The notes: a model not told the origin generated them from the sequence alone. A stretch of DNA of 32,000 nucleotides from Trichodesmium erythraeum IMS101 (GCF_000014265.1 NC_008312.1:2040001-2072000); one strand, 5' to 3'. Positions 1-17,446 are shown, counted from the first letter of the stretch. Numbers and translations: made by a program.

Positions 1-455
1 TAGATTATTTATCTAAAATCTAATAACTAAGACGTTTGAGATGAATAAAACATCAATAAATACTATTAAGTAAATTATTTATCTAAAATCTAATAACTAA
101 GACGTTTGAGATGAATAAAGCATCAATAAATACTATTAAGTAAATTATTTATCTAAAATCTAATAACTAAGACGTTTGAGATGAATAAAGCATCAATAAA
201 TACTATTAAGTAAATTATTTATCTAAAATCTAATAACTAAGACGTTTGAGATGAATAAAGCATCAATAAATACTATTAAGTAAATTATTTATCTAAAATC
301 TAATAACTAAGACGTTTGAGATGAATAAAACATCAATAAATACTATTAAGTAAATTATTTATCTAAAATCTAATAACTAAGACGTTTGAGATGAATAAAA
401 CATCAATAAATACTATTAAGTAAATTATTTATCTAAAATCTAAAACCTAGACATT
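1..455. repeat. Tandem repeat, 70-bp unit, 6 full copies plus a degenerate partial 7th; may continue upstream of the window
   Basis: Units start at 1, 71, 141, 211, 281, 351 and 421 (partial). Unit sequence is taaattatttatctaaaatctaataactaagacgtttgagatgaataaa[a/g]catcaataaatactattaag. The only internal polymorphism is A/G at unit position 50, in the order A G G G A A. Copy 1 begins tagatt instead of taaatt. Confidence 0.95.
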
Positions 456-2044: not shown

Positions 2045-3895
2045 TTATAATGCACTACCACCATCAAAACTATGTTTATTTGTTAAAGCTATCCAATCTT
2101 GACGATTTTTCAACTTAACATAAGCTGTTAGAATTTCCTTGGCTGAGATTTGAACATTCTCTTGACTTTCGAGTTTTGACTTTTCACTTTTGACCTCAAT
2201 ATATCCTTTCCAACCTGAAAATTCATATTCTGCTCCTAATAAATTTGCTACATCAGCACGAGGAAAACCAGACATTCCAAAACCTTTTACTACATTTTCT
2301 TGATTCAAAATAGCAATACATTTAATCTGAACATTCTCTTGACTTTTTACTTCCCAGTTTGAAGGAGGTAATAGTGGGTCTGACTTCCTAGCTTGGGAAG
2401 AGTAAGAGGGGAGTTTACTTTTAACTTTACTAACCCATCCATTTACTCTTGCTGTAGTTGGAGAAAATTTAGTCACATTATCAAAATATCCCTGCCAATT
2501 TTCTGGCAGTTTTCCAGTTAATAAATTAGAATTAATTTTCTCATCCAAATTAGCACAAAAATTATCCTTTTTTATATCTCGATTAAAAGGTACTAAACTA
2601 TCAGATTTCAAAGCATCTACTAACCCTAAAAAAGCAGCAGGTCGGTTACCAACTTTCTCTTGAATTAAAGTCGGATCTAAAACTCCTATTTGTAAGGATA
2701 ATGCTACTAAAGGTTGAAAAGTTGCCCGATGAGCAATTTCTTTAAAAGTTTCTGTACCTACTCGATACATTAATATAATCAAAATAGTCAAAAGTGCCAC
2801 TAATGGAGCAACAAAATACCATTGTCTTCTTGGGGTAAATTGTTGTTGTTTTAACCATAAAAAAATCAGAATAATTAGACTTAACCAGAATAGAGCAGGT
2901 AGGGTTCCGTAACGAGAAGCGATCGCTTGTTCTATTCCAAACCCAGAACGACTAACAGCAGCCATCAAAGCAGTACCCAAAGTATAAATTATTATTGATA
3001 ACCAGGGCAACCAATCTTGAGGATAAATTATAAATAACCAATAAATTAAAAATATTCCTGCTAAAACTAATCCTACCCAACCTATTGCCAAAGCCAGGGA
3101 AATATTATGAGTAAAAATTGCTCCTAAATAAATAGGAATGTAAGTAACTATATCAAGAAAATTCAGTTTAGATAATGAGGGATGATGAGAGGGTGTTGTG
3201 TAGGTGATAAAATAAATACCTATTACTAAAACAGAAAAAAATAGATAAGAGAAAGTCAACTTTTTTGGCAATTTATATAGAATGGCAACTCCACATAATA
3301 TAGGCCAAATTCCTAGAGCGGTACTATAACTAATACATCCTAAAATTCCCAAGGTTATACTAGTAATAGCAAATCTATTTTGTTGAGATTCTAGTAATTT
3401 TTTGACGCAAAAAATTGAGGCAATGACAAATAAATTAGCAATTACCCAATGTACTCCACTATATCCGCGCATCCAGTTATGAGCAGCAGCAGGGGTAAAG
3501 TTAAAAACTGAGATAAATAAAATTAGTAAGAAAAGTATCGGACGATGTTTTTTGAGAGTATTAGGTACTAAGATTTTTAATAAAATTCCCTGAACACAAG
3601 CTAGGAAAAATGTAGTTAGACATAACCCAATATTGGAACCTTTAGTAATAACAATATTCAGGGCATAAATTATGGCAGGAATTAAGACAAAATGTTCATT
3701 TGCCCGAAAGATCCAGTCAAAAATATTAGTGGAGAAACCATCTATAGAATAGATATTTTTAATCATCCACCAATAATCGAAATTTAGTAATTCTCCCGCC
3801 TTTGATATCATAAAAAGTACATAAAAAGCAGGTAGTAGAATTGTGATAATTGTGAGGATTATAAAATTAACTTCTGATTTTTTTTTTGCTAACAT
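2045..3895 (-). CDS. Polytopic integral membrane protein with a C-terminal soluble domain; putative GT-C-type glycosyltransferase; paralog of 17447..19189
   Basis: 616-aa ORF. About 12 hydrophobic segments over the first 400 aa, followed by a hydrophilic tail of about 200 aa. Colinear motifs shared with the 580-aa ORF: EHFVLIPAII vs HHRILIPKLI, and AAHNWMRGYSGVHWV vs VQHQNWLWGFTLFWF. Lies next to a GT2 lipid-P-sugar synthase gene. Confidence 0.6.
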   Translation of the reverse strand: MLAKKKSEVNFIILTIITILLPAFYVLFMISKAGELLNFDYWWMIKNIYSIDGFSTNIFDWIFRANEHFVLIPAIIYALNIVITKGSNIGLCLTTFFLACVQGILLKILVPNTLKKHRPILFLLILFISVFNFTPAAAHNWMRGYSGVHWVIANLFVIASIFCVKKLLESQQNRFAITSITLGILGCISYSTALGIWPILCGVAILYKLPKKLTFSYLFFSVLVIGIYFITYTTPSHHPSLSKLNFLDIVTYIPIYLGAIFTHNISLALAIGWVGLVLAGIFLIYWLFIIYPQDWLPWLSIIIYTLGTALMAAVSRSGFGIEQAIASRYGTLPALFWLSLIILIFLWLKQQQFTPRRQWYFVAPLVALLTILIILMYRVGTETFKEIAHRATFQPLVALSLQIGVLDPTLIQEKVGNRPAAFLGLVDALKSDSLVPFNRDIKKDNFCANLDEKINSNLLTGKLPENWQGYFDNVTKFSPTTARVNGWVSKVKSKLPSYSSQARKSDPLLPPSNWEVKSQENVQIKCIAILNQENVVKGFGMSGFPRADVANLLGAEYEFSGWKGYIEVKSEKSKLESQENVQISAKEILTAYVKLKNRQDWIALTNKHSFDGGSAL

Positions 3896-5013: not shown

Positions 5014-7569
5014 TAATAAATAGTAATATAATTACCTGGTGAACCTGTTACCTCTTTCATTGTTAGAAGTACAAAAACAAAGATAAATTTGCCAACTTTA
5101 TCCTCTATTAATTGACTAATATCCAAGTCATTAAAATTAATAATCCCGTGTTTAACCACATTCTATATGAAAGTCAAAAGGTCGATTTAAGTCTTCAGCA
5201 GAAATAGCTTCAGTTCCCCAAATATCTGACCCTACCATCACTATTTTTAAGGTAGATAAATAACGACGGCTATTAATATCAGGTCTAAGCCTTCCATTAA
5301 TAAATAGTAATATAATTACCTGGTGAACCTGTTACCTCTTTCATTGTTAGAAGTACAAAAACAAAGATAAATTTGCCAACTTTATCCTCTATTAATTGAC
5401 TAATATCCAAGTCATTAAAATTAATAATGCCGTGTTTAACCACATTCTATATGAAAGTCAAAAGGTCGATTTAAGTCTTCAGCAGAAATAGCTTCAGTTC
5501 CCCAAATATCTGACCCTACCATCACTATTTTTAAGGTAGATAAATAACGACAACTATTAATATCAGGTCTAAGCCTTCCATTAATAAATAGTAATATAAT
5601 TACCTGGTGAACCTGTTACCTCTTTCATTGTTAGAAGTACAAAAACAAAGATAAATTTGCCAACTTTATCCTCTATTAATTGACTAATATCCAAGTCATT
5701 AAAATTAATAATCCCGTGTTTAACCACATTCTATATGAAAGTCAAAAGGTCGATTTAAGTCTTCAGCAGAAATAGCTTCAGTTCCCCAAATATCTGACCC
5801 TACCATCACTATTTTTAAGGTAGATAAATAACGACAACTATTAATATCAGGTCTAAGCCTTCCATTAATAAATAGTAATATAATTACCTGGTGAACCTGT
5901 TACCTCTTTCATTGTTAGAAGTACAAAAACAAAGATAAATTTGCCAACTTTATCCTCTATTAATTGACTAATATCCAAGTCATTAAAATTAATAATCCCG
6001 TGTTTAACCACATTCTATATGAAAGTCAAAAGGTCGATTTAAGTCTTCAGCAGAAATAGCTTCAGTTCCCCAAATATCTGACCCTACCATCACTATTTTT
6101 AAGGTAGATAAATAACGACAACTATTAATATCAGGTCTAAGCCTTCCATTAATAAATAGTAATATAATTACCTGGTGAACCTGTTACCTCTTTCATTGTT
6201 AGAAGTACAAAAACAAAGATAAATTTGCCAACTTTATCCTCTATTAATTGACTAATATCCAAGTCATTAAAATTAATAATGCCGTGTTTAACCACATTCT
6301 ATATGAAAGTCAAAAGGTCGATTTAAGTCTTCAGCAGAAATAGCTTCAGTTCCCCAAATATCTGACCCTACCATCACTATTTTTAAGGTAGATAAATAAC
6401 GACAACTATTAATATCAGGTCTAAGCCTTCCATTAATAAATAGTAATATAATTACCTGGTGAACCTGTTACCTCTTTCATTGTTAGAAGTACAAAAACAA
6501 AGATAAATTTGCCAACTTTATCCTCTATTAATTGACTAATATCCAAGTCATTAAAATTAATAATCCCGTGTTTAACCACATTCTATATGAAAGTCAAAAG
6601 GTCGATTTAAGTCTTCAGCAGAAATAGCTTCAGTTCCCCAAATATCTGACCCTACCATCACTATTTTTAAGGTAGATAAATAACGACAACTATTAATATC
6701 AGGTCTAAGCCTTCCATTAATAAATAGTAATATAATTACCTGGTGAACCTGTTACCTCTTTCATTGTTAGAAGTACAAAAACAAAGATAAATTTGCCAAC
6801 TTTATCCTCTATTAATTGACTAATATCCAAGTCATTAAAATTAATAATCCCGTGTTTAACCACATTCTATATGAAAGTCAAAAGGTCGATTTAAGTCTTC
6901 AGCAGAAATAGCTTCAGTTCCCCAAATATCTGACCCTACCATCACTATTTTTAAGGTAGATAAATAACGACAACTATTAATATCAGGTCTAAGCCTTCCA
7001 TTAATAAATAGTAATATAATTACCTGGTGAACCTGTTACCTCTTTCATTGTTAGAAGTACAAAAACAAAGATAAATTTGCCAACTTTATCCTCTATTAAT
7101 TGACTAATATCCAAGTCATTAAAATTAATAATGCCGTGTTTAACCACATTCTATATGAAAGTCAAAAGGTCGATTTAAGTCTTCAGCAGAAATAGCTTCA
7201 GTTCCCCAAATATCTGACCCTACCATCACTATTTTTAAGGTAGATAAATAACGACAACTATTAATATCAGGTCTAAGCCTTCCATTAATAAATAGTAATA
7301 TAATTACCTGGTGAACCTGTTACCTCTTTCATTGTTAGAAGTACAAAAACAAAGATAAATTCGCCAACTTTATCCTCTATTAATTGACTAATATCCAAGT
7401 CATTAAAATTAATAATGCCGTGTTTAACCACATTCTATATGAAAGTCAAAAGGTCGATTTAAGTCTTCAGCAGAAATAGCTTCAGTTCCCCAAATATCTG
7501 ACCCTACCATCACTATTTTTAAGGTAGATAAATAACGACGGCTATTAATATCAGGTCTAAGCCTTCCAT
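5014..7569. repeat. Tandem repeat, 284-bp unit x 9, more than 99% identical, non-coding
   Basis: Units start at 5014, 5298, 5582, 5866, 6150, 6434, 6718, 7002 and 7286, an exact 284-bp period. I found only three variable sites. The ORF track has no ORF on either strand between 4885 and 7579. Confidence 0.97.
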
Positions 7570-7789
7570 AATTAAATATTTGACTATTTTTGGCTTTTTT
7601 TTAAGGAATCAGACTATCCCATTCTTTTCCCCAGTAATTACTATTACCTGTGTAAAAAATAACTATATTCTATTATTTTATTCGAGCTATTTTTTGCTTT
7701 TTTTTATTGCTCCTTTAATTATGATTAATGGTAATAATGATCCAGGAATTATTACCATTACCTTGGGGAATTGGTAAACTTTCAAATCC

Positions 7790-8341
7790 TCAATAAGCAT
7801 CAATATTTAACAACACTCTCCTAGTGACATACTCTAACTCTCCAATTTTTTCTACTCCCAATTTATTGAAACCATAGGGTGTTCCAAAGTATTCTAAAAA
7901 GTTACCATTATCAAAATATTTTCTTTGATAAGTATTGACGCCAATATAACCTAAACTATCAAATTGATTACCAACTTTACCTAACTCAGTAACCACATAC
8001 TCATGATGAGCAATAACTTCATTTCCTCCGGATAATTTATAGTTTAGTAGACCGGGAATTATTAATTTCCAATTACGTTTGCCAAATACCGGAGCATAAC
8101 TTTGATAACCATTATCAAGGATAGTAAATTTACCTTTTTTGACTAATTTTAGGGATTATAATTTTTTTTTATTATTAATCCAATTAACTGAACCTACTTC
8201 ATCATTTTTGACAAAAATTTAAGGGCTCTATCTCTCTATTAAAGAAAGTTCATCAGCCATACTTGAGGAATAAAAATTACAGATATTTGATAGGATAAAA
8301 ATAAGTAATCTGCTCAATTTTAAGTAATTAGAAATTTTCAT
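7790..8341 (-). pseudogene. Pseudogene of a small secreted hypothetical protein (184 codons, three in-frame stops, no frameshift)
   Basis: One continuous frame runs from the ATG at 8341 to the TGA at 7790. Translation: MKISNYLKLSRLLIFILSNICNFYSSSMADELSLIER*SP*IFVKNDEVGSVNWINNKKKL*SLKLVKKGKFTILDNGYQSYAPVFGKRNWKL...NIDAY. In-frame stops are TAG (8228-8230), TAA (8219-8221) and TAA (8156-8158). The N-terminus looks like a signal peptide. The ORF-track ORF 7790..7996 is only the tail of this frame. Confidence 0.55.
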
Positions 8342-11547: not shown

Positions 11548-11991
11548 TTACCTTAGAATTAAACCCTCATATTGAGGTACAGAATAATTAGTAATCTTAT
11601 ACAAAACATCCGCAGTTTCAGACACTACTAAAAAACCATGAGCAAAACCAGGGGGCACCCAAAGTTGTCGTTTATTTTCTGCACTTAAACAGCACCTACC
11701 CAACTTACCAAAATTAGGAGAATTTTTCCGAATGTCTATAGCAACATCAAATATTTCTCCCAAAACTACTCTTAATAATTTACCTTAAGCTTGTTGAATT
11801 TGATAATGCAAAGCTCGAAGTAAACCTTCACTATAACGAGAATGATTATCTTGCACAAATTCGAGATTTACTCCTGTTTTTTTGGAAAAATTACGTTAAT
11901 TAAAACTCTCCATAAAAAAGCCATATTCGTCTCCAAAAACTTTTAGTTATATTAATAATACTTCAGGAATTTATGTTTCAATTACATTCAT
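11548..11991 (-). pseudogene. Truncated, nonsense-riddled tandem duplicate of rfbC (first ~147 codons plus ~60-80 nt of upstream sequence)
   Basis: Colinear at the nucleotide level with 12230..12659. Same frame throughout, no indels. Four in-frame TAA codons: MNVIET*IPEVLLI*LKVFGDEYGFFMESFN*RNFSKKTGVNLEFVQDNHSRYSEGLLRALHYQIQQA*GKLLRVVLGEIFDV... The matching codons in the intact copy are GAA, GAG, CAA and CAA. Confidence 0.9.
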
Positions 11992-12113
11992 TTTTTTGAC
12001 TTCAGTTAATTTAATTTCATAGAATAAGGAAGATAAAATATAGCACTACTATTGCAATACTATTTATAAAACTTATAAAGCGTAGACTTAAGTAAATCCC
12101 TTTTGTAGAGTAT

Positions 12114-12659
12114 TTACATCAAATCAGCCTCTTTCAAAGTTGTACCATCTTTATCTTTTTGAGACAATTTTACCTCAATTCCATTTATTGGCCAACTAAT
12201 CCCAATTTCTGAATCATTCCACAGAATTGAACGCTCATATTCAGGTGCATAATAATCAGTAGTTTTATACAAAACATCCGCAGTTTCAGACACTACAAAA
12301 AAACCATGAGCAAAACCAGGAGGCACCCAAAGTTGTCGTTTATTTTCTGCACTTAAAAGATAGCCTACCCACTTACCAAAATTAGGAGAATTTTTCCGAA
12401 TGTCTACAGCAACATCAAATATTTCTCCCAAAACTACTCTTAATAATTTGCCTTGAGCTTGTTGAATTTGATAATGCAAACCTCGAAGTACACCTTGGCT
12501 AGAACGAGAATGATTATCTTGCACAAATTCGAGATTTACTCCTGTTTTTTCGGAAAAATTACGTTGATTAAAACTCTCCATAAAAAAGCCACGTTCGTCT
12601 CCAAAAACTTTTGGCTCTATTAATAATACTTCAGGAATTTCTGTTTGAATTACATTCAT
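12114..12659 (-). CDS. rfbC: dTDP-4-dehydrorhamnose 3,5-epimerase
   Basis: 181-aa ORF. Cupin-fold RmlC hallmarks FGDERGFF, RGLHYQ, QGKLLRVV.GEIFDVAVDIR and VPPGFAHGF. Confidence 0.92.
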   Translation of the reverse strand: MNVIQTEIPEVLLIEPKVFGDERGFFMESFNQRNFSEKTGVNLEFVQDNHSRSSQGVLRGLHYQIQQAQGKLLRVVLGEIFDVAVDIRKNSPNFGKWVGYLLSAENKRQLWVPPGFAHGFFVVSETADVLYKTTDYYAPEYERSILWNDSEIGISWPINGIEVKLSQKDKDGTTLKEADLM

Positions 12660-12679
12660 TTTTTTGACCTCATTTTTTA

Positions 12680-15600
12680 TAAAGGATAAGGAATAAGGTA
12701 AATACTATTTATTTTTTCCAAGTTTACAATTCTCCTATCCATAAATCAAAGACTAATTTATCTAGTAAAAAAAAATTAAACCAGGAAATTGATAATAAAA
12801 AATAGAACAAAACCTACTGATCATACTTTAATCTATTCAAAATAGATCCCAGACTCATTAAATTACTGGTTAGCTTTAATTTTACATCAGAAAATTCACT
12901 TTTTTCTACATCTAATTTTATCGTCTTTAGGAATAAATAAGAAATCAGTAAATTTTTCTATTGCTTGATAGGGAATAGGGAAAATCAAGTGAAAATTCCT
13001 TTAAACTTATTACCAAAAAGTTGATATTTTTAGACTCAATAGGAAGAGATAACAGAAAATATAAAGACACTGGAAACTGTTAGATAATAACTGTAACTGG
13101 TAACTGTTAAATAATAACTGTTACTACCTCTTGTTTTTCAAGCTTATAACTATCCTATCCATAAATTAAAGACTAATTTATCTAGATTAAAAAATTGAGA
13201 AATTGAGAGAAAAAAAGAGAACCAAATCTGCTAATAATACTTCAATATATTCAAAATATATCTCAGAATCATTAAATTACTGGTTAGCTTTGATTCTACA
13301 TCAGAAAATTCACTTTTTTCTACATCTAATTTTATCGTCTTTAGGAATAAATAAGAAATCAGTAAATTTTTCTATTGCTTGATAGGGAATAGGGAAAATC
13401 AAGTGAAAATTCCTTTAAACTTATTACCAAAAAGTTGATATTTTTAGACTCAATAGGAAGAAATAACAGAAAATATAAAGACGCTGGAAACTGTTAGATA
13501 ATAACTGTTAACTGTTAACTGTTAAATCATAACTGTTACTACCTCTTTTTTTTTCAAGCTTATAACTATCCTATCCATAAATTAAAGACTAATTTATCTA
13601 GATTAAAAAATTGAGAAATTGAGAGAAAAAAAGAGAACCAAATCTGCTAATAATACTTCAATATATTCAAAATCTATCTCAGACTCATTAAATTACTGGT
13701 TAGCTTTAATTTTACATCAGAAAATTCACTTTTTTCTACATCTAATTTTATCGTCTTTAGGAATAAATAAGAAATCAGTAAATTTTTCTATTGCTTGATA
13801 GGGAATAGGGAAAATCAAGTGAAAATTCCTTTAAACTTATTACCAAAAAGTTGATATTTTTAGACTCAATAGGAAGAAATAACAGAAAATATAAAGACGC
13901 TGGAAACTGTTAGATAATAACTGTTAACTGTTAACTGTTAAATCATAACTGTTACTACCTCTTTTTTTTTCAAGCTTATAACTATCCTATCCATAAATTA
14001 AAGACTAATTTATCTAGATTAAAAAATTGAGAAATTGAGAGAAAAAAAGAGAACCAAATCTGCTAATAATACTTCAATATATTCAAAATCTATCTCAGAC
14101 TCATTAAATTACTGGTTAGCTTTAATTTTACATCAGAAAATTCACTTTTTTCTACATCTAATTTTATCGTCTTTAGGAATAAATAAGAAATCAGTAAATT
14201 TTTCTATTGCTTGATAGGGAATAGGGAAAATCAAGTGAAAATTCCTTTAAACTTATTACCAAAAAGTTGATATTTTTAGGCTCAATAGGAAGAGATAACA
14301 GAAAATATAAAGACGCTGGAAACTGTTAGATAATAACTGTTACTACCTCTTTTTTTTTCAAGCTTATAACTATCCTATCCATAAATTAAAGACTAATTTA
14401 TCTAGATTAAAAAATTGAGAAATTGAGAGAAAAAAAGAGAACCAAATCTGCTAATAATACTTCAATATATTCAAAATCTATCTCAGACTCATTAAATTAC
14501 TGGTTAGCTTTAATTTTACATCAGAAAATTCACTTTTTTCTACATCTAATTTTATCGTCTTTAGGAATAAATAAGAAATCAGTAAATTTTTCTATTGCTT
14601 GATAGGGAATAGGGAAAATCAAGTGAAAATTCCTTTAAACTTATTACCAAAAAGTTGATATTTTTAGGCTCAATAGGAAGAGATAACAGAAAATATAAAG
14701 ACGCTGGAAACTGTTAGATAATAACTGTTACTACCTCTTTTTTTTTCAAGCTTATAACTATCCTATCCATAAATTAAAGACTAATTTATCTAGATTAAAA
14801 AATTGAGAAATTGAGAGAAAAAAAGAGAACCAAATCTGCTAATAATACTTCAATATATTCAAAATCTATCTCAGACTCATTAAATTACTGGTTAGCTTTA
14901 ATTTTACATCAGAAAATTCACTTTTTTCTACATCTAATTTTATCGTCTTTAGGAATAAATAAGAAATCAGTAAATTTTTCTATTGCTTGATAGGGAATAG
15001 GGAAAATCAAGTGAAAATTCCTTTAAACTTATTACCAAAAAGTTGATATTTTTAGGCTCAATAGGAAGAGATAACAGAAAACATAAAGACGCTGGAAACT
15101 GTTAGATAATAACTGTTACTACCTCTTTTTTTTTCAAGCTTATAACTATCCTATTCATAAATTAAAGACTAATTTATCTAGATTAAAAAATTGAGAAATT
15201 GAGAGAAAAAAAGAGAACCAAATCTGCTAATAATACTTCAATATATTCAAAATATATCTCAGACTCATTAAATTACTGGTTAGCTTTGATTCTACATCAG
15301 AAACCCCACTTTTTTTCAAAGCAAATTTTATTCTATCTAGGGATAAATAAGAAATAATTAAAGTGTTATTTTGGTTGATAATGAATAGGAAAAATTAACT
15401 GAAACTTCCTTTAAAATTATTACCAAAAAGTTGATAATTTTAGAATCAAGAGTGAGAGAGAAAATAAAATATAAAGAAGCTGAAAACTGTTAGTAAATAA
15501 CTGTTAACCGTTAACTGTTAACTAATAACTGTTACTACCTCTTTTTTTTCCAAGCTTATAACTATCCTATCCATAAATTAAAGACTAATTTATCTAGATT

Positions 15601-16359
15601 AAAAAATTGAGAAATTGAGAGAAAAAAAGAGAACCAAATCTGCTAATAATACTTCAATATATTCAAAATATATCTCAGACTCATTAAATTACTGGTTAGC
15701 TTTGATTCTACATCAGAAACCCCACTTTTTTTCAAAGTAAATTTTATTCTATCTAGGGATAAATAAGAAATAATTAAAGTGTTACTTTGGTTGATAATGA
15801 ATAGGAAAAATTAACTGAAACTTCCTTTAAAATTATTACCAAAAAGTTGAGGAATTTAGAATCAAGAGGGATAGATAAAATAAAATATAAAGAAGCTAAA
15901 AACTGTTATTAAATAACTGTTAACCGTTAACTGTTAACTAATAACTGTTACTACCTCTTTTTTTTCCAAGCTTATAACTATCCTATCCATAAATTAAAGA
16001 CTAATTTATCTAGATTAAAAAATTGAGAAATTGAGAGAAAAAAAGAGAACCAAATCTGCTAATAATACTTCAATATATTCAAAATATATCTCAGACTCAT
16101 TAAATTACTGGTTAGCTTTGATTCTACATCAGAAACCCCACTTTTTTTCAAAGTAAATTTTATTCTATCTAGGGATAAATAAGAAATAATTAAAGTGTTA
16201 CTTTGGTTGATAATGAATAGGAAAAATTAACTGAAACTTCCTTTAAAATTATTACCAAAAAGTTGAGGAATTTAGAATCAAGAGGGATAGATAAAATCAA
16301 ATATAAAGAAGCTAAAAACTGTTAGTAAATAACTGTTAACCGTTAACTTATAACTGTTA
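12680..16359. repeat. Tandem array of 9 units (388-420 bp). Each unit is a decayed copy of the last ~90 codons of the methyltransferase gene plus its downstream spacer
   Basis: The landmark caag(c/t)tt recurs at 12719, 13139, 13555, 13971, 14359, 14747, 15135, 15551, 15967 and 16376. The last occurrence is inside the real CDS. Periods are 420, 416, 416, 388, 388, 388, 416, 416 and 409. The units align colinearly with 16360..~16630. Confidence 0.95.
13501..13540. repeat. Heptamer microsatellite (AACTGTT)n, STRR-like; one tract per unit of the 12.7-16.4 kb array (representative copy)
   Basis: Sequence ataactgttaactgttaactgttaaatcataactgttact. Units of 388 bp have a shorter tract (ataactgttact), which accounts for the 28-bp (4 x 7) length difference from 416-bp units. 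A similar tract, ctgataactgataactaataactgtt, lies at about 8491-8516. Confidence 0.85.
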
Positions 16360-17220
16360 TTACCTCTTTTGCCCCCAAGCTTCCAATTCTCCTATCCATA
16401 AATTAAAGACCAATTTATCTAGATTAAAAAATTTAGAAATTGAGAGGAAAAAAGAGAACAAAACCTGCTGATAATACTTCAATCTATTCAAAATATATCC
16501 CAGGCTCATTAAATTACTAGTCGGCTTTGATTCTACATCAGAAAATCCACTTTTTTCCAAAGCAAATTTTATCGTATCTAGGGAGAAATAAGTCAAGTGT
16601 TCTGTTGGTTTATAATGATACCAAAAAGACCCTAATAATCTATGCCAAAACCCTCCCACATTTGGAGTAGTAATAAAAATCCATCCTCCAGGTTTCAAAA
16701 GTTGATAAGCTGCTGTTAATTGAGCAATAGGATCTGTCGTATGTTCAATCATATCTTGCAACATAATCAAATCAAAAGAATTAGGTTCAAAACTATGATT
16801 AAACAAATCCCCTTGATGTACAGATAAGCCCCTACTTTTAGCAAAATTTACTGCATATTCTGAGACTTCTAAACCTTGAGGTTTATCCCATCCTAAATCT
16901 TTTGCTTGCTCCAAACAATCACCTAAAGCACAACCCACATCTAATAATAAACCTTGACCAAAAAGTTTTTTCTCTGCTTTTAATAAACGTTTACGAAAAG
17001 TCTGATTATTAATTTTCATCCCTTGGAAATAATTAGAATATCCTCCTTTAGGGAAATCGTTATTATAATAACTTTCCTGATAAATAGTAGTAGGATTTAC
17101 TGGCGGATTATTATCCCATACCATACCACATTTAGAGCATTTTGCTAATAGATAGTTATCCCCTGCTTTATAATAGTTAAACTTGTTTGTATGACATAAG
17201 GGGCAATAATTTTTTTGCAT
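16360..17220 (-). CDS. Class I SAM-dependent methyltransferase with an N-terminal Cys4 zinc-ribbon
   Basis: 286-aa ORF. CPLCHTNKF...CSKCGMVW zinc-ribbon. Motif I LLDVGCALGDC, plus LIMLQDMIEH and LKPGGWIFITTPN. Its last ~270 nt are the master copy of the downstream tandem array. Confidence 0.85.
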   Translation of the reverse strand: MQKNYCPLCHTNKFNYYKAGDNYLLAKCSKCGMVWDNNPPVNPTTIYQESYYNNDFPKGGYSNYFQGMKINNQTFRKRLLKAEKKLFGQGLLLDVGCALGDCLEQAKDLGWDKPQGLEVSEYAVNFAKSRGLSVHQGDLFNHSFEPNSFDLIMLQDMIEHTTDPIAQLTAAYQLLKPGGWIFITTPNVGGFWHRLLGSFWYHYKPTEHLTYFSLDTIKFALEKSGFSDVESKPTSNLMSLGYILNRLKYYQQVLFSFFLSISKFFNLDKLVFNLWIGELEAWGQKR

Positions 17221-17446
17221 AATATTTGGATTAAAATTACTTATATTATGATATTGGGGATAGCTATATTAAAATTTTAACCTCAATATTACCAGTGAAC
17301 GTAATCCATCTTCACATATCAAGTGATTTTTAGAACACTAAGTATTTTCAGCCACTTTTCAGAGACTTCTGCTATTAGCCCTGAAGTTCATTTATGGGAA
17401 ATTTTGGTGGTTATTATTATCTTATCTGTTTAAATTAAAATACTAG

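Follow-up and report, generated by a model that had tools for sequence, protein, structure and literature searches.

The methyltransferase-rfbC interval

The window analysed here is a stretch of 32,000 nucleotides from Trichodesmium erythraeum IMS101 (NC_008312.1:2040001-2072000). An intact methyltransferase gene lies in it within a cell-surface polysaccharide cluster that includes rfbC, rfbD and a glycosyltransferase gene. Between the methyltransferase gene and rfbC, nine head-to-tail units (U1-U9) fill positions 12703-16359.

12114-12659, minus strand: rfbC (dTDP-4-dehydrorhamnose 3,5-epimerase); Pfam dTDP_sugar_isom, E = 6e-74
12660-12702, minus strand: rfbC leader, 43 unique nt with the ribosome-binding region (…AATGAGGTCAAAAAAATG), outside the repeat
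12703-13122, minus strand: U1, distal unit, 420 bp
13123-13538, minus strand: U2, 416 bp
13539-13954, minus strand: U3, 416 bp
13955-14342, minus strand: U4, 388 bp, four heptamers shorter
14343-14730, minus strand: U5, 388 bp, four heptamers shorter
14731-15118, minus strand: U6, 388 bp, four heptamers shorter
15119-15534, minus strand: U7, gene-proximal subfamily
15535-15950, minus strand: U8, gene-proximal subfamily
15951-16359, minus strand: U9, gene-proximal subfamily; pseudo-copy 15951-16226, spacer 16227-16359
16300-16359, no strand assigned: heptamer tract (AACAGTT/TAACTGT type) directly after the stop codon; Tandem Repeats Finder (TRF) periods 7 and 14
16360-16628, minus strand: template of the pseudo-copies, the gene's last 269 nt (~89 codons plus stop); the unit alignment ends at ~16628
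16360-17220, minus strand: methyltransferase gene, intact, 286 aa, class I SAM-dependent; Pfam Methyltransf_23, E = 2e-23

The number of units given in a preliminary description of this DNA was recovered. An anchor motif occurs ten times at spacings of 420/416/416/388/388/388/416/416/409, and the tenth occurrence is the methyltransferase gene's own 3' end at 16360, hence nine units. TRF reported an array at 12712-16592 with periods of 416 and 388 and matches of 90-96%. In each unit, ~276 nt run colinear with the final 269 nt of the methyltransferase CDS (16360-16628), and 112-140 nt of spacer follow; read in gene orientation (U7-U9), the order is spacer followed by pseudo-3' end. The alignments thus reproduced the anatomy first proposed, in which every unit combines a pseudo-copy of the gene's 3' end with the spacer that lies downstream, and in all units they run from the stop codon (16360) to ~16628. 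Local alignment scores between units and gene were 149-187 versus 13.5 +/- 2 for shuffled sequences (z = 67-88); the best match of the gene tail elsewhere in the window scored 18-20. The gene-proximal copy had been described as colinear without indels, but every unit carries a frameshifting 7-nt insertion (CTTATTT) near the 5' boundary that is found in no functional gene, and U1 carries a further 6-nt insertion.

The gene itself is intact. An exact-sequence look-up identified its product as ABG50661.1 / WP_011611040.1 of T. erythraeum IMS101 and a neighbouring 580-aa protein as Tery_1349. The 286-aa sequence recurs unchanged in 98 blocks of assemblies, and the orthologues are full-length (284-290 aa, query coverage 100%). 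In its 5' and 3' halves alike, differences from them fall preferentially on third codon positions, and the 3' tail is no more diverged than the 5' part. T. erythraeum contigs carry the rfbC leader with 100% identity, and array-less Dapis, Okeania and Trichodesmium relatives have it in the corresponding place with 81-93% identity. Since these 43 nt separate U1 from the ATG, the 5' region of rfbC is not wholly repeat-derived as had been thought.

Composition and descent of the units

The division of the units into two subfamilies, U7-U9 and U1-U6, was borne out by the alignments and identities, and U1-U6 have a derived 5' block in common. Over the gene-derived part, identity to the gene is 80.2% for U1, 82-84% for U2-U6 and 86.9% for U7-U9. 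Among themselves U7-U9 are 98.5-100% identical (100% between U8 and U9) and U3-U6 are 100% identical; U2 is 95.4% identical to U3-U6, and U1 is 85-87% identical to U2-U6. The tails of U2-U9 end in AAGAGGTAG, resembling the gene of their own genome (AAGAGGTAA), but U1 differs and ends in AAATAAATA, as does the only pseudo-copy of the relative L013. These two also have the derived states ATTTCCTG and TTTGATTTATGG, the tail AAAAAATAAATA and the junction to the rfbC leader in common. U1, the distal and oldest pseudo-copy, is thereby shown to be orthologous to the one in L013. The motifs GGTTTTG and GAATTG are common to the gene and U1 and absent from the orthologues and the L013 pseudo-copy, indicating that some exchange between gene and copy occurred. 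The gene-like states attributed to the distal unit were confirmed, and so was the suggested homogenisation of the interior, where U3-U6 are completely identical over the gene-derived part. A tree of the units had been named as a check; in the identity matrix and the tree, the window units and the L013 pseudo-copy cluster apart from the genes, and this grouping together with the common CTTATTT insertion argues for shared descent of the pseudo-copies.

The translations with in-frame stops were reproduced, and stops are present in every unit (2-5 per unit). Differences between units and gene are spread evenly over the three codon positions (11/5/11, 11/8/14 and 14/11/17), compared with 6/1/10, 7/2/13 and 6/2/14 for the functional orthologues. 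With these stops, the frameshifting insertion and the even distribution of substitutions, the pseudo-copies are dead.

The spacer showed no significant similarity to the methyltransferase gene body. L009, L013, L029 and L033/L034 have a homologous native intergenic region, and the spacer corresponds to the single-copy methyltransferase-rfbC intergenic region of array-less relatives (74-75% identity in L009, 76-79% in L029). Gene tail and intergenic region are contiguous in L009 and L029, matching the order within the unit. The heptamer tract that follows the stop codon of the gene recurs in the corresponding place in each unit (for instance at 15485-15534, 13905-13954 and 13075-13123), and the relatives have orthologous (CAGTTAT)n tracts 3' of the stop codon. 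It forms a hairpin in the predicted RNA structure, and differences in heptamer number explain the periods of 416, 409 and 388 bp. A second type of heptamer tract, TTCCCTA, precedes the rfbC leader.

The repeat junction lies at the 9-mer TATCACTAT or one heptamer beyond it. This 9-mer is present in the gene (codons W-Y-H-Y-K) and again at the end of the spacer or intergenic region; it marks both end-points in the unduplicated L009, where its second occurrence lies 367 nt downstream of the one in the gene, and in L033 and L034, whose terminal spacer retains it. The junction reads …CTAT/AAACC… in every duplicated lineage, and in the junctions an extra heptamer stands between the 9-mer and AAACC. 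By our estimate, chance alone should give about two 9-nt matches between a gene of 860 nt and an AT-rich spacer of 170 nt, so the 9-mer derives its weight only from its position at the junction.

The ancestral state can still be seen: wherever a related locus extends beyond the methyltransferase gene, rfbC follows that gene after a gap of 47-663 nt, in most cases with no pseudo-copy. Copy number across lineages is 0, a remnant, 1, ~3 or 9. L013 has exactly one pseudo-copy. L029 has a 45-nt remnant without the 7-nt insertion, so the same short homology may have given rise to the duplication on more than one occasion. The sister lineage L033/L034 has its own array, consisting of gene tail, spacer, full pseudo-copy and spacer, then 88-nt pseudo-copies each with spacer (one in L033, two in L034) and the rfbC leader; a whole number of copies ending in spacer is what tandem duplication predicts. 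In the window and in L013 the last pseudo-copy joins the rfbC leader almost directly, with no terminal spacer. A 29-mer from the interior units had 0 matches in JGI metagenome contigs.

Tandem arrays are numerous across the locus in relatives, and arrays that start inside gene 3' ends are found at other genes of the same cluster in both the window and the relatives. A second array in the window (284 bp x 9) is made of the last ~284 nt, including the stop codon, of a dead cyclase-like gene and has a TATTTA-type match at its junction. A 70-bp array nearby repeats intergenic DNA of which L013 has a single copy. In the 284-bp and 70-bp arrays the same process as in the methyltransferase array is at work nearby.

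Origin of the array and competing explanations

Head-to-tail repeats, a contiguous single-copy source, a junction at a short repeat, and variation in copy number and length together with concerted evolution (interior units 95-100% identical to one another and 82-84% to the gene) are features of a tandem duplication, and these were found here. We consider it quite probable that short-homology duplication gave rise to the array, a non-coding tandem amplification now in decay, which expanded by unequal crossover and was partially homogenised.

We infer the following order of events. An ancestor shared by T. erythraeum and some of its relatives would have duplicated in tandem a segment of ~410 nt (the terminal 269 nt of the methyltransferase gene, the heptamer tract and ~100 nt of native intergenic DNA), with end-points in, or one heptamer past, the 9-nt direct repeat. 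End-points at short direct repeats are the usual route of short-homology duplication. The first copy would have stayed on the intact gene, and the second would have decayed, gaining stops and, by slippage, the 7-nt insertion. Gene tail and pseudo-copy would then have formed 269-nt direct repeats ~416 nt apart, between which unequal homologous exchange in the T. erythraeum lineage could have produced chimeras with the 5' part of the pseudo-copy and the 3' tail of the gene. Further unequal exchange would have led to nine units and a homogenised interior, the distal unit keeping older states, and slippage in the heptamer tracts may have given rise to the length classes of 416, 409 and 388 bp. Selection presumably keeps the methyltransferase gene itself clean. 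As the array ends in U1 and not in spacer, the simple model needs an additional deletion, of ~150 nt and common to this array and L013; otherwise the array could have begun with a templated insertion into the TTCCCTA heptamer tract. Judged by predictors that are weak, the array would appear to have no selected function and is probably tolerated bulk; in the one comparable array studied, that at Tery_0080, every repeat has a strong transcription start of its own. About 40% of the T. erythraeum genome is non-coding DNA.

That the array is multi-copy is supported by independent assemblies. In three scaffolds of T. erythraeum (L035, L001 and L003) a 100-N gap lies inside the array; the flanks, 98.1-100% identical to the window, comprise the gene, U9, U8 and part of U7 on one side, and on the other U1 and rfbC. 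Contig L044 spans from within U2 through U1 to rfbC at 99.8% identity, and four contigs (L040-L043) begin inside the array, at the window's U3. The count of nine rests on a single assembly, and the exact copy number is uncheckable from sequence alone since U3-U6 and U8/U9 are 100% identical. An artefact, either a real array with a wrong number of units or the mis-join of a collapsed repeat, could be suspected from the identity of four units over their gene-derived part, from short-read contigs that contain only 2-3 units, and from the fact that none of the independent assemblies compared spans the array. We regard it as very unlikely, given that the set of units is not clonal (it has two subfamilies, three length classes, and specific variants in U1, U2 and U7), that the three scaffolds match the window up to the gap on both sides, that five contigs break inside the array as is usual for a genuine long repeat, that other lineages have arrays at the same site, and that ABG50661.1 belongs to a 7.75-Mb contig, i.e. 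a finished chromosome. Hardly credible, in our view, is a set of silent cassettes of the pilE/pilS or vlsE type, from which gene conversion into the gene's 3' end would vary the protein or, by way of the stop codons in the units, switch sugar methylation on and off. The layout is alike, with promoterless partial 3' copies in tandem beside an expressed gene, the cell-surface polysaccharide cluster is a common target of phase variation, and the states shared by gene and U1 indicate some exchange; however, the copies are of low diversity (U3-U6 identical, U8 equal to U9), all have the frameshifting 7-nt insertion and 2-5 stops, class I SAM-dependent methyltransferases are a family taken as cytoplasmic and not surface-exposed, and the protein is unchanged in the 98 assembly blocks, its tail under purifying selection like the rest.

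The units could also form a non-coding RNA locus like the array at Tery_0080 in the same genome, each with a promoter and a discrete antisense or sense transcript. Such an RNA might act in trans, and one conceivable target is the methyltransferase mRNA, whose 3' end it would match with 80-87% complementarity; alternatively, U1 might supply the promoter of rfbC. The Tery_0080 array has one transcription start site (TSS) per repeat, on the strand opposite to the gene fragments, and its RNA of ~260 nt accounts for 44.7% of primary TSS-assigned reads (Pfreundt et al. (2014), Sci Rep 4:6187, PMC4143802); the function of these RNAs is still called unclear in a review. A sense promoter-like motif, TAGAAA-N18-TAAAAT, is present in each of U1-U6 (for example at 12908-12879), that of U1 lying ~210 nt upstream of the rfbC ATG, and the matching position in the gene has TGGAAA-N18-TAGAAT (16559-16530). 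Against this reading, the motif was undetected in U7-U9, promoter-like sites were not enriched (23 versus 29.4 +/- 5.8 in shuffles), the array matched no Rfam family, and fold stability on the two strands was unremarkable (z-scores -1.7 and -1.3). The substitutions in the units look unconstrained, the pseudo-copy is lost or truncated in relatives, and none of the 23 TSS in Table 1 of PMC4143802 (the top 20 plus three) lies near ~2.1 Mb, a rough estimate of the position of Tery_1348. We therefore hold an RNA locus to be unlikely, though deserving of some weight. The notion that rfbC is preceded by nine copies of the gene's 3'-end signals found no support: 0 intrinsic terminators were predicted across 12000-17400, and the promoter-like sites were those already mentioned.

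Relation to known systems

A general mechanism of tandem amplification in bacteria is short-homology duplication followed by RecA-dependent unequal crossover. The methyltransferase array resembles it in its direct copies of a single-copy segment, short-repeat junction, lineage-variable copy number and interior concerted evolution. Amplifications obtained in the laboratory usually measure kb to Mb, comprise whole genes, are selected for dosage and are quick to collapse; the array, in contrast, has units of 0.4 kb, is non-coding and has aged to 13-20% divergence from the gene. True cassettes, as in Neisseria pilS/pilE and Borrelia vls, likewise consist of tandem copies of an expressed gene close by, promoterless and truncated at the 5' end, but they are diverse, readable in frame and directed at surface antigens. 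Filamentous cyanobacteria reportedly contain short tandemly repeated heptamer sequences (STRR; Mazel et al. 1990). Similarly, heptamer tracts (AACAGTT/CAGTTAT and TTCCCTA) flank the duplicated segment and vary in number, although here the heptamers are a component and likely slippage site, not the 0.4-kb unit.

A mobile element (MITE or IS) was rejected, as no meaningful inverted repeats were found and the unit occurs nowhere else in the window. A diversity-generating retroelement, which is active in T. erythraeum (PMC4143802), also places a copy of a gene 3' end outside the gene, but as one copy and not nine. Such an element was rejected here: A stands in the unit at no more than about half of the mismatches (13-21 of 27-42) and T at many others, a pattern consistent with AT-biased decay and not with adenine-specific mutagenesis, and no reverse transcriptase was found among the ten largest ORFs of the window.

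The closest counterpart is the 7-unit array of IMS101 whose repeats each contain the 3' part of Tery_0080 (Pfreundt et al. 2014, PMC4143802), and the belief that no such system had been described does not stand. Both arrays are in the same genome, both are multi-kb and head-to-tail against the 3' end of a reverse-strand gene, and in both each repeat carries the 3' part of the gene on the gene's strand. The Tery_0080 array has a mapped TSS per repeat and an extremely abundant RNA of ~260 nt. Its units are longer than those of the methyltransferase array, 736-973 bp compared with 388-420 bp. The non-genic remainder of the Tery_0080 units had no similarity in any genome, and the authors suggested alien DNA brought in by mobile elements (PMC4143802); in the methyltransferase array, on the contrary, the non-genic part is native intergenic region. 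An array of this kind has thus already been reported once in this genome, and such arrays are common in its relatives.

Structure of the array between the methyltransferase gene and rfbC

The methyltransferase gene lies in a cluster for cell-surface polysaccharide and export, all on the minus strand, which includes a GT2 glycosyltransferase, a thioesterase, rfbD, rfbC, the methyltransferase gene, an amidase, an HlyD-like protein and a C39-peptidase ABC exporter. Its protein is identical to ABG50661.1 / WP_011611040.1 of T. erythraeum IMS101, and a 580-aa neighbour is Tery_1349; no tRNA genes were found in the window. Tandem Repeats Finder placed the array between this gene and rfbC at 12712-16592, with periods of 416 and 388 and 90-96% matches. 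An anchor motif was found ten times, with spacings of 420/416/416/388/388/388/416/416/409 nt, giving nine units (U1 to U9), each a pseudo-copy of the gene's last 269 nt plus a spacer. The tenth occurrence lies within the gene itself, on the minus strand.

Features of the array region (unit starts set by the anchor motif)
12114-12659, minus strand, rfbC
12660-12702, leader before the rfbC ATG
12703, start of U1
13123, start of U2
13539, start of U3
13955, start of U4
14343, start of U5
14731, start of U6
15119, start of U7
15535, start of U8
15951, start of U9
16360-17220, minus strand, methyltransferase gene (286 aa)

As the preliminary description had proposed in reading the units as copies of the gene's 3' end, a multiple alignment showed all of them to be colinear with the coding sequence from its stop codon (16360) to about 16628. 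Identity to the gene over the copied stretch is 80.2% in U1, 82-84% in U2-U6 and 86.9% in U7-U9. The similarity is not the chance resemblance of AT-rich DNA, since local alignments of unit and gene scored 149-187, against 13.5 +/- 2 for shuffled units (z = 67-88); the gene tail's best other match inside the window scored 18-20. The two subfamilies recognised earlier, U7-U9 and U1-U6, were recovered from alignment and identity, as were the gene-like character states of U1 from the alignment. U3-U6 are mutually identical over the gene-derived part, and so are U8 and U9. The number of heptamers is the only difference between the 416, 409 and 388 bp classes; the heptamer (AACNGTT) is almost palindromic, and structure prediction shows its tract folding back on itself. 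Two details had to be revised. The colinearity is not free of indels, as a 7-nt insertion is found in every unit close to the 5' boundary of the copied segment, with an extra one of 6 nt in U1, and the 5' region of rfbC is not wholly repeat-derived, the 43 nt before its ATG being unique, non-repeat sequence. The observation itself was confirmed, and its structural interpretation was largely right.

The methyltransferase is full length relative to its homologues (284-290 aa, covering 100% of the query), so its C-terminus is ancestral and it is the repeat that derives from the gene, not the reverse. Identity to orthologues in the tail versus the 5' part is 92.9% vs 90.7% for one orthologue (L007) and 91.0% vs 93.2% for another (L011), and differences between the gene and its orthologues are biased to third codon positions, tail included. 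Because the tail is as conserved as the 5' part and shares this bias, the gene is judged intact and under constraint. Every unit has 2-5 stop codons in the gene frame. The shared 7-nt insertion is a frameshifting duplication of CTTATTT, absent from every functional orthologue. Differences between unit and gene by codon position are near even (11/5/11 in U9, 11/8/14 in U3, 14/11/17 in U1), and those between the gene and functional orthologues show a third-position excess (6/1/10, 7/2/13, 6/2/14). By their stop codons, the insertion and this pattern of substitution, the pseudo-copies are dead.

Three independent T. erythraeum scaffolds, one from GCA_018457135.1 (L035) and two from colony metagenomes (L001, L003), have a 100-N gap in this array and another in a second, 284-bp array of the window.

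Positions of the 100-N gaps
L035, 7656-7755 and 13375-13474
L001, 11322-11421 and 17317-17416
L003, 11738-11837 and 17214-17313

These gaps fall exactly at the two large arrays, so neither was resolved in those short-read assemblies. On the gene side the scaffold flanks run through U9 into U8 or U7 with 99.7-100% identity, and on the rfbC side through U1 to rfbC with 98.1-100%. One contig (L044) leads from inside U2 through U1 to rfbC (99.8%), four (L040-L043) begin within the array at the window's U3, and others follow a collapsed path of 2-3 units with both subfamilies present. A 29-mer from the interior units had no matches in JGI metagenome contigs. Since independent scaffolds and contigs enter or break inside it, the array is genuine and has multiple copies in nature; the count of nine comes from one assembly.

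Origin and growth of the units

The spacers do not significantly resemble the part of the gene body that lies upstream of 16628. A spacer made of decayed upstream gene sequence was considered, and local alignment to gene positions 16595-16900 did give z of about 5 for proximal spacers and about 1.4 for distal ones; this candidate was rejected, since the alignment only extends the known homology to about 16628. The spacer matches the single-copy methyltransferase-rfbC intergenic region of two array-less relatives, with 74-75% identity to Dapis sp. BLCC M172 (L009, 162-nt gap) and 76-79% to a Microcoleaceae metagenome-assembled genome (L029), and therefore both halves of the unit are native, contiguous DNA. 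Every Dapis, Okeania and Trichodesmium locus that extends beyond the methyltransferase gene keeps the order methyltransferase then rfbC, the gap between the two being 47-663 nt. These intergenic regions open with CAGTTAT/AACAGTT-type heptamers right after or overlapping the stop codon, and close with TTCCCTA-type heptamers before the conserved rfbC leader. Heptamer tracts (CAGTTAT/AACAGTT, GATAATT, TTCCCTA, CCATTAT) occur clade-wide directly after stop codons and before the next leader, as seen in intergenic regions of L009, L013, L015, L016, L026 and L029, at window positions 16300-16359 and at the same place in each unit. The tract includes the stop codon in L013 and L029.

In the unduplicated L009, the 9-mer TATCACTAT is present within the gene (TGG TAT CAC TAT AAA) and again 367 nt downstream, where the intergenic region ends. 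The junction between spacer and pseudo-copy reads …CTAT/AAACC… in every duplicated lineage, at or one heptamer past the 9-mer, which the last spacer of L033 and L034 retains. Several intermediate states were found. Exactly one pseudo-copy is present in L013, a metagenome-assembled genome with a 91% identical methyltransferase. In L029 a 45-nt remnant of one lies between TTCCCTA repeats. L033 and L034 (90% nucleotide identity) show gene tail, spacer, full pseudo-copy and spacer, then short copies (88-nt pseudo-copies, each with a spacer, one in L033 and two in L034) and then the rfbC leader; Tandem Repeats Finder reported repeats of 410 bp x 1.9 and 249 bp x 3.0 in L034. The 7-nt insertion is present in all pseudo-copies whose 5' part survives.

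By identity, the window units and the L013 pseudo-copy cluster apart from functional genes. U1 and the L013 pseudo-copy have derived substitutions in common and an identical junction to the leader, so that U1 is orthologous to it and predates the T. erythraeum expansion. Both end in AAATAAATA. U2-U9 end in AAGAGGTAG, resembling T. erythraeum's own gene (AAGAGGTAA), as would be expected if the gene tail had undergone unequal exchange with the old pseudo-copy.

Ordinary duplication and unequal exchange are the most likely explanation of the array. A stretch of about 410 nt would have been duplicated at short homology and the extra copy would then have decayed; in T. erythraeum, unequal exchange would have enlarged the array and partly homogenised its units, with selection keeping the gene-attached copy clean. 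U2-U9 would be chimeras, with a 5' part from the pseudo-copy and a 3' part from the gene, produced by unequal exchange of the gene tail with the old pseudo-copy. One detail does not fit the simplest history: the last pseudo-copy in T. erythraeum and L013 adjoins the leader with no final spacer, so the history must either add a deletion of about 150 nt common to both or begin with a templated insertion into the TTCCCTA tract. As the 7-nt insertion is missing from the L029 remnant, duplication at the same short homology may have happened more than once. Other known routes to repeated gene ends were set aside: a mobile element, since neither terminal inverted repeats nor further copies in the window were found; a diversity-generating retroelement, since the mismatch spectrum is not adenine-specific; and a silent-cassette system, on its defining features.

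Other arrays in the cluster

Further repeats in the window
4-443, 70-bp x 6.3 array, 99% identical, extending past the window start
5014-7578, minus strand, 284-bp x 9 array of the last ~284 nt (~95 codons), including the stop codon, of a cyclase-like gene
7285-8341, minus strand, cyclase-like pseudogene with several stops, parent of the 284-bp array
11554-11991, minus strand, degenerate second rfbC (residues 1-146, 82% identical), directly downstream of intact rfbC

The nine copies of the 284-bp array are 99% identical, each unit ending exactly at the stop codon and each copy retaining a 48-aa ORF (…GSPGNYITIY, then stop); a short TATTTA-type match is found at the junction. The cyclase-like gene is intact in L029 (352 aa, 13980-15038). 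All nine copies share a frameshift at residue 304, so the amplification followed the death of the parent gene. The 70-bp unit is single-copy in L013 (10114-10167; 82-84% identical), 40-95 nt after the stop codon of a glycosyltransferase gene, and is present in L025 too; from this comparison the array is an amplified stretch of native intergenic sequence and contains no gene fragment.

Among the related loci compared, the cluster's intergenic regions very often contain tandem arrays, with periods of 60-420 bp. In relatives, orthologues of a 616-aa gene (window 2045-3895) are followed immediately by 2-5 repeats of their last 120-165 nt (period about 150 bp), and the last 69 nt of a 368-aa ORF are repeated directly downstream in L025. 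A gene 3' end is included in the first unit at four loci and a 5' end in two weak cases; these are too few to claim a 3'-end bias. Many Okeania, Dapis and related genomes have a 138-bp array of 2-14 copies downstream of rfbC, with up to 14 in Okeania sp. KiyG1, and the window has the rfbC pseudo-copy where those relatives carry it. Two Okeania loci (L019 and L024) have two full tandem rfbC copies. A fragment of a Y1-transposase (PF01797) gene is found just upstream of the methyltransferase gene in two related lineages and is absent from the window.

Repeats and gene fragments at related loci
L007 15840-16271, tail repeats of the 616-aa gene orthologue
L013 7653-8066, tail repeats of the 616-aa gene orthologue
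L015 18518-19124, tail repeats of the 616-aa gene orthologue
L025 10492-10781, tail repeat of the 368-aa ORF
L024 12970-14901, 138-bp array
L020 12006-13519, 138-bp array
L021 11923-14491, 138-bp array
L034 3666-4219, 138-bp array
L013 2592-2925, 138-bp array
L031 5404-5791, Y1-transposase fragment
L032 3287-3571, Y1-transposase fragment
L033 149-433, Y1-transposase fragment
L034 167-451, Y1-transposase fragment

Possible function and comparison with the Tery_0080 array

No intrinsic terminators were predicted in 12000-17400, and promoter-like sites are not enriched (n=23 vs 29.4 +/- 5.8 in shuffles). A known RNA family or RNA structure was also considered and rejected, as the Rfam search matched no family and fold z-scores were -1.7 (sense) and -1.3 (antisense). 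The motif TAGAAA-N18-TAAAAT is repeated on the sense strand of U1-U6, its counterpart in the gene being TGGAAA-N18-TAGAAT; as a hypothesis only, a start site set by the U1 motif would fall near 12870, some 210 nt ahead of the rfbC ATG. Nothing that could be computed points to a function of the array.

T. erythraeum IMS101 was already known to harbor an array of this kind, so the earlier statement that no such system had been described does not hold. In the Tery_0080 array there is one transcription start site per repeat, on the strand opposite the gene fragments, and 44.7% of the primary reads assigned to start sites come from the resulting RNA, which is about 260 nt long (Pfreundt et al. 2014, PMC4143802). 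A later review considered the function of this RNA still unclear. Table 1 of the same study (PMC4143802) lists no start sites near ~2.1 Mb, the position of Tery_1348 being estimated from locus-tag spacing, and no mention of Tery_1346 to Tery_1349 was found in the literature searched. We consider it improbable that gene-tail arrays (Tery_0080, the methyltransferase gene, the dead cyclase-like gene and the 616-aa membrane protein orthologues) form a recurrent, lineage-specific class of locus in Trichodesmium and its relatives, kept for per-unit promoters and abundant RNAs. Under that doubtful reading, such RNAs, identical or complementary to the 3' end of the parent gene, would be trans-acting regulators, or the units tandem promoters for the downstream gene. 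As it stands the locus is ordinary for the clade, and it would gain regulatory interest if its units were transcribed like the Tery_0080 repeats.

The locus offers a clean natural record of the birth and growth of a bacterial tandem array, since unduplicated, one-copy, remnant, small-array and nine-copy states are all preserved among related lineages and the homology at the junction can still be seen. Tandem arrays built of native gene tails and spacers, and not of foreign DNA, occupy about 6.7 kb of the 32-kb window, which helps to explain the makeup of Trichodesmium's unusually large non-coding fraction. The methyltransferase array is a further case of the kind already described in T. erythraeum. 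The non-genic part of the Tery_0080 repeats had no similarity, and Pfreundt et al. (PMC4143802) suggested alien DNA brought in via mobile elements, whereas the non-genic part of the methyltransferase array is demonstrably native and such an import is unnecessary.
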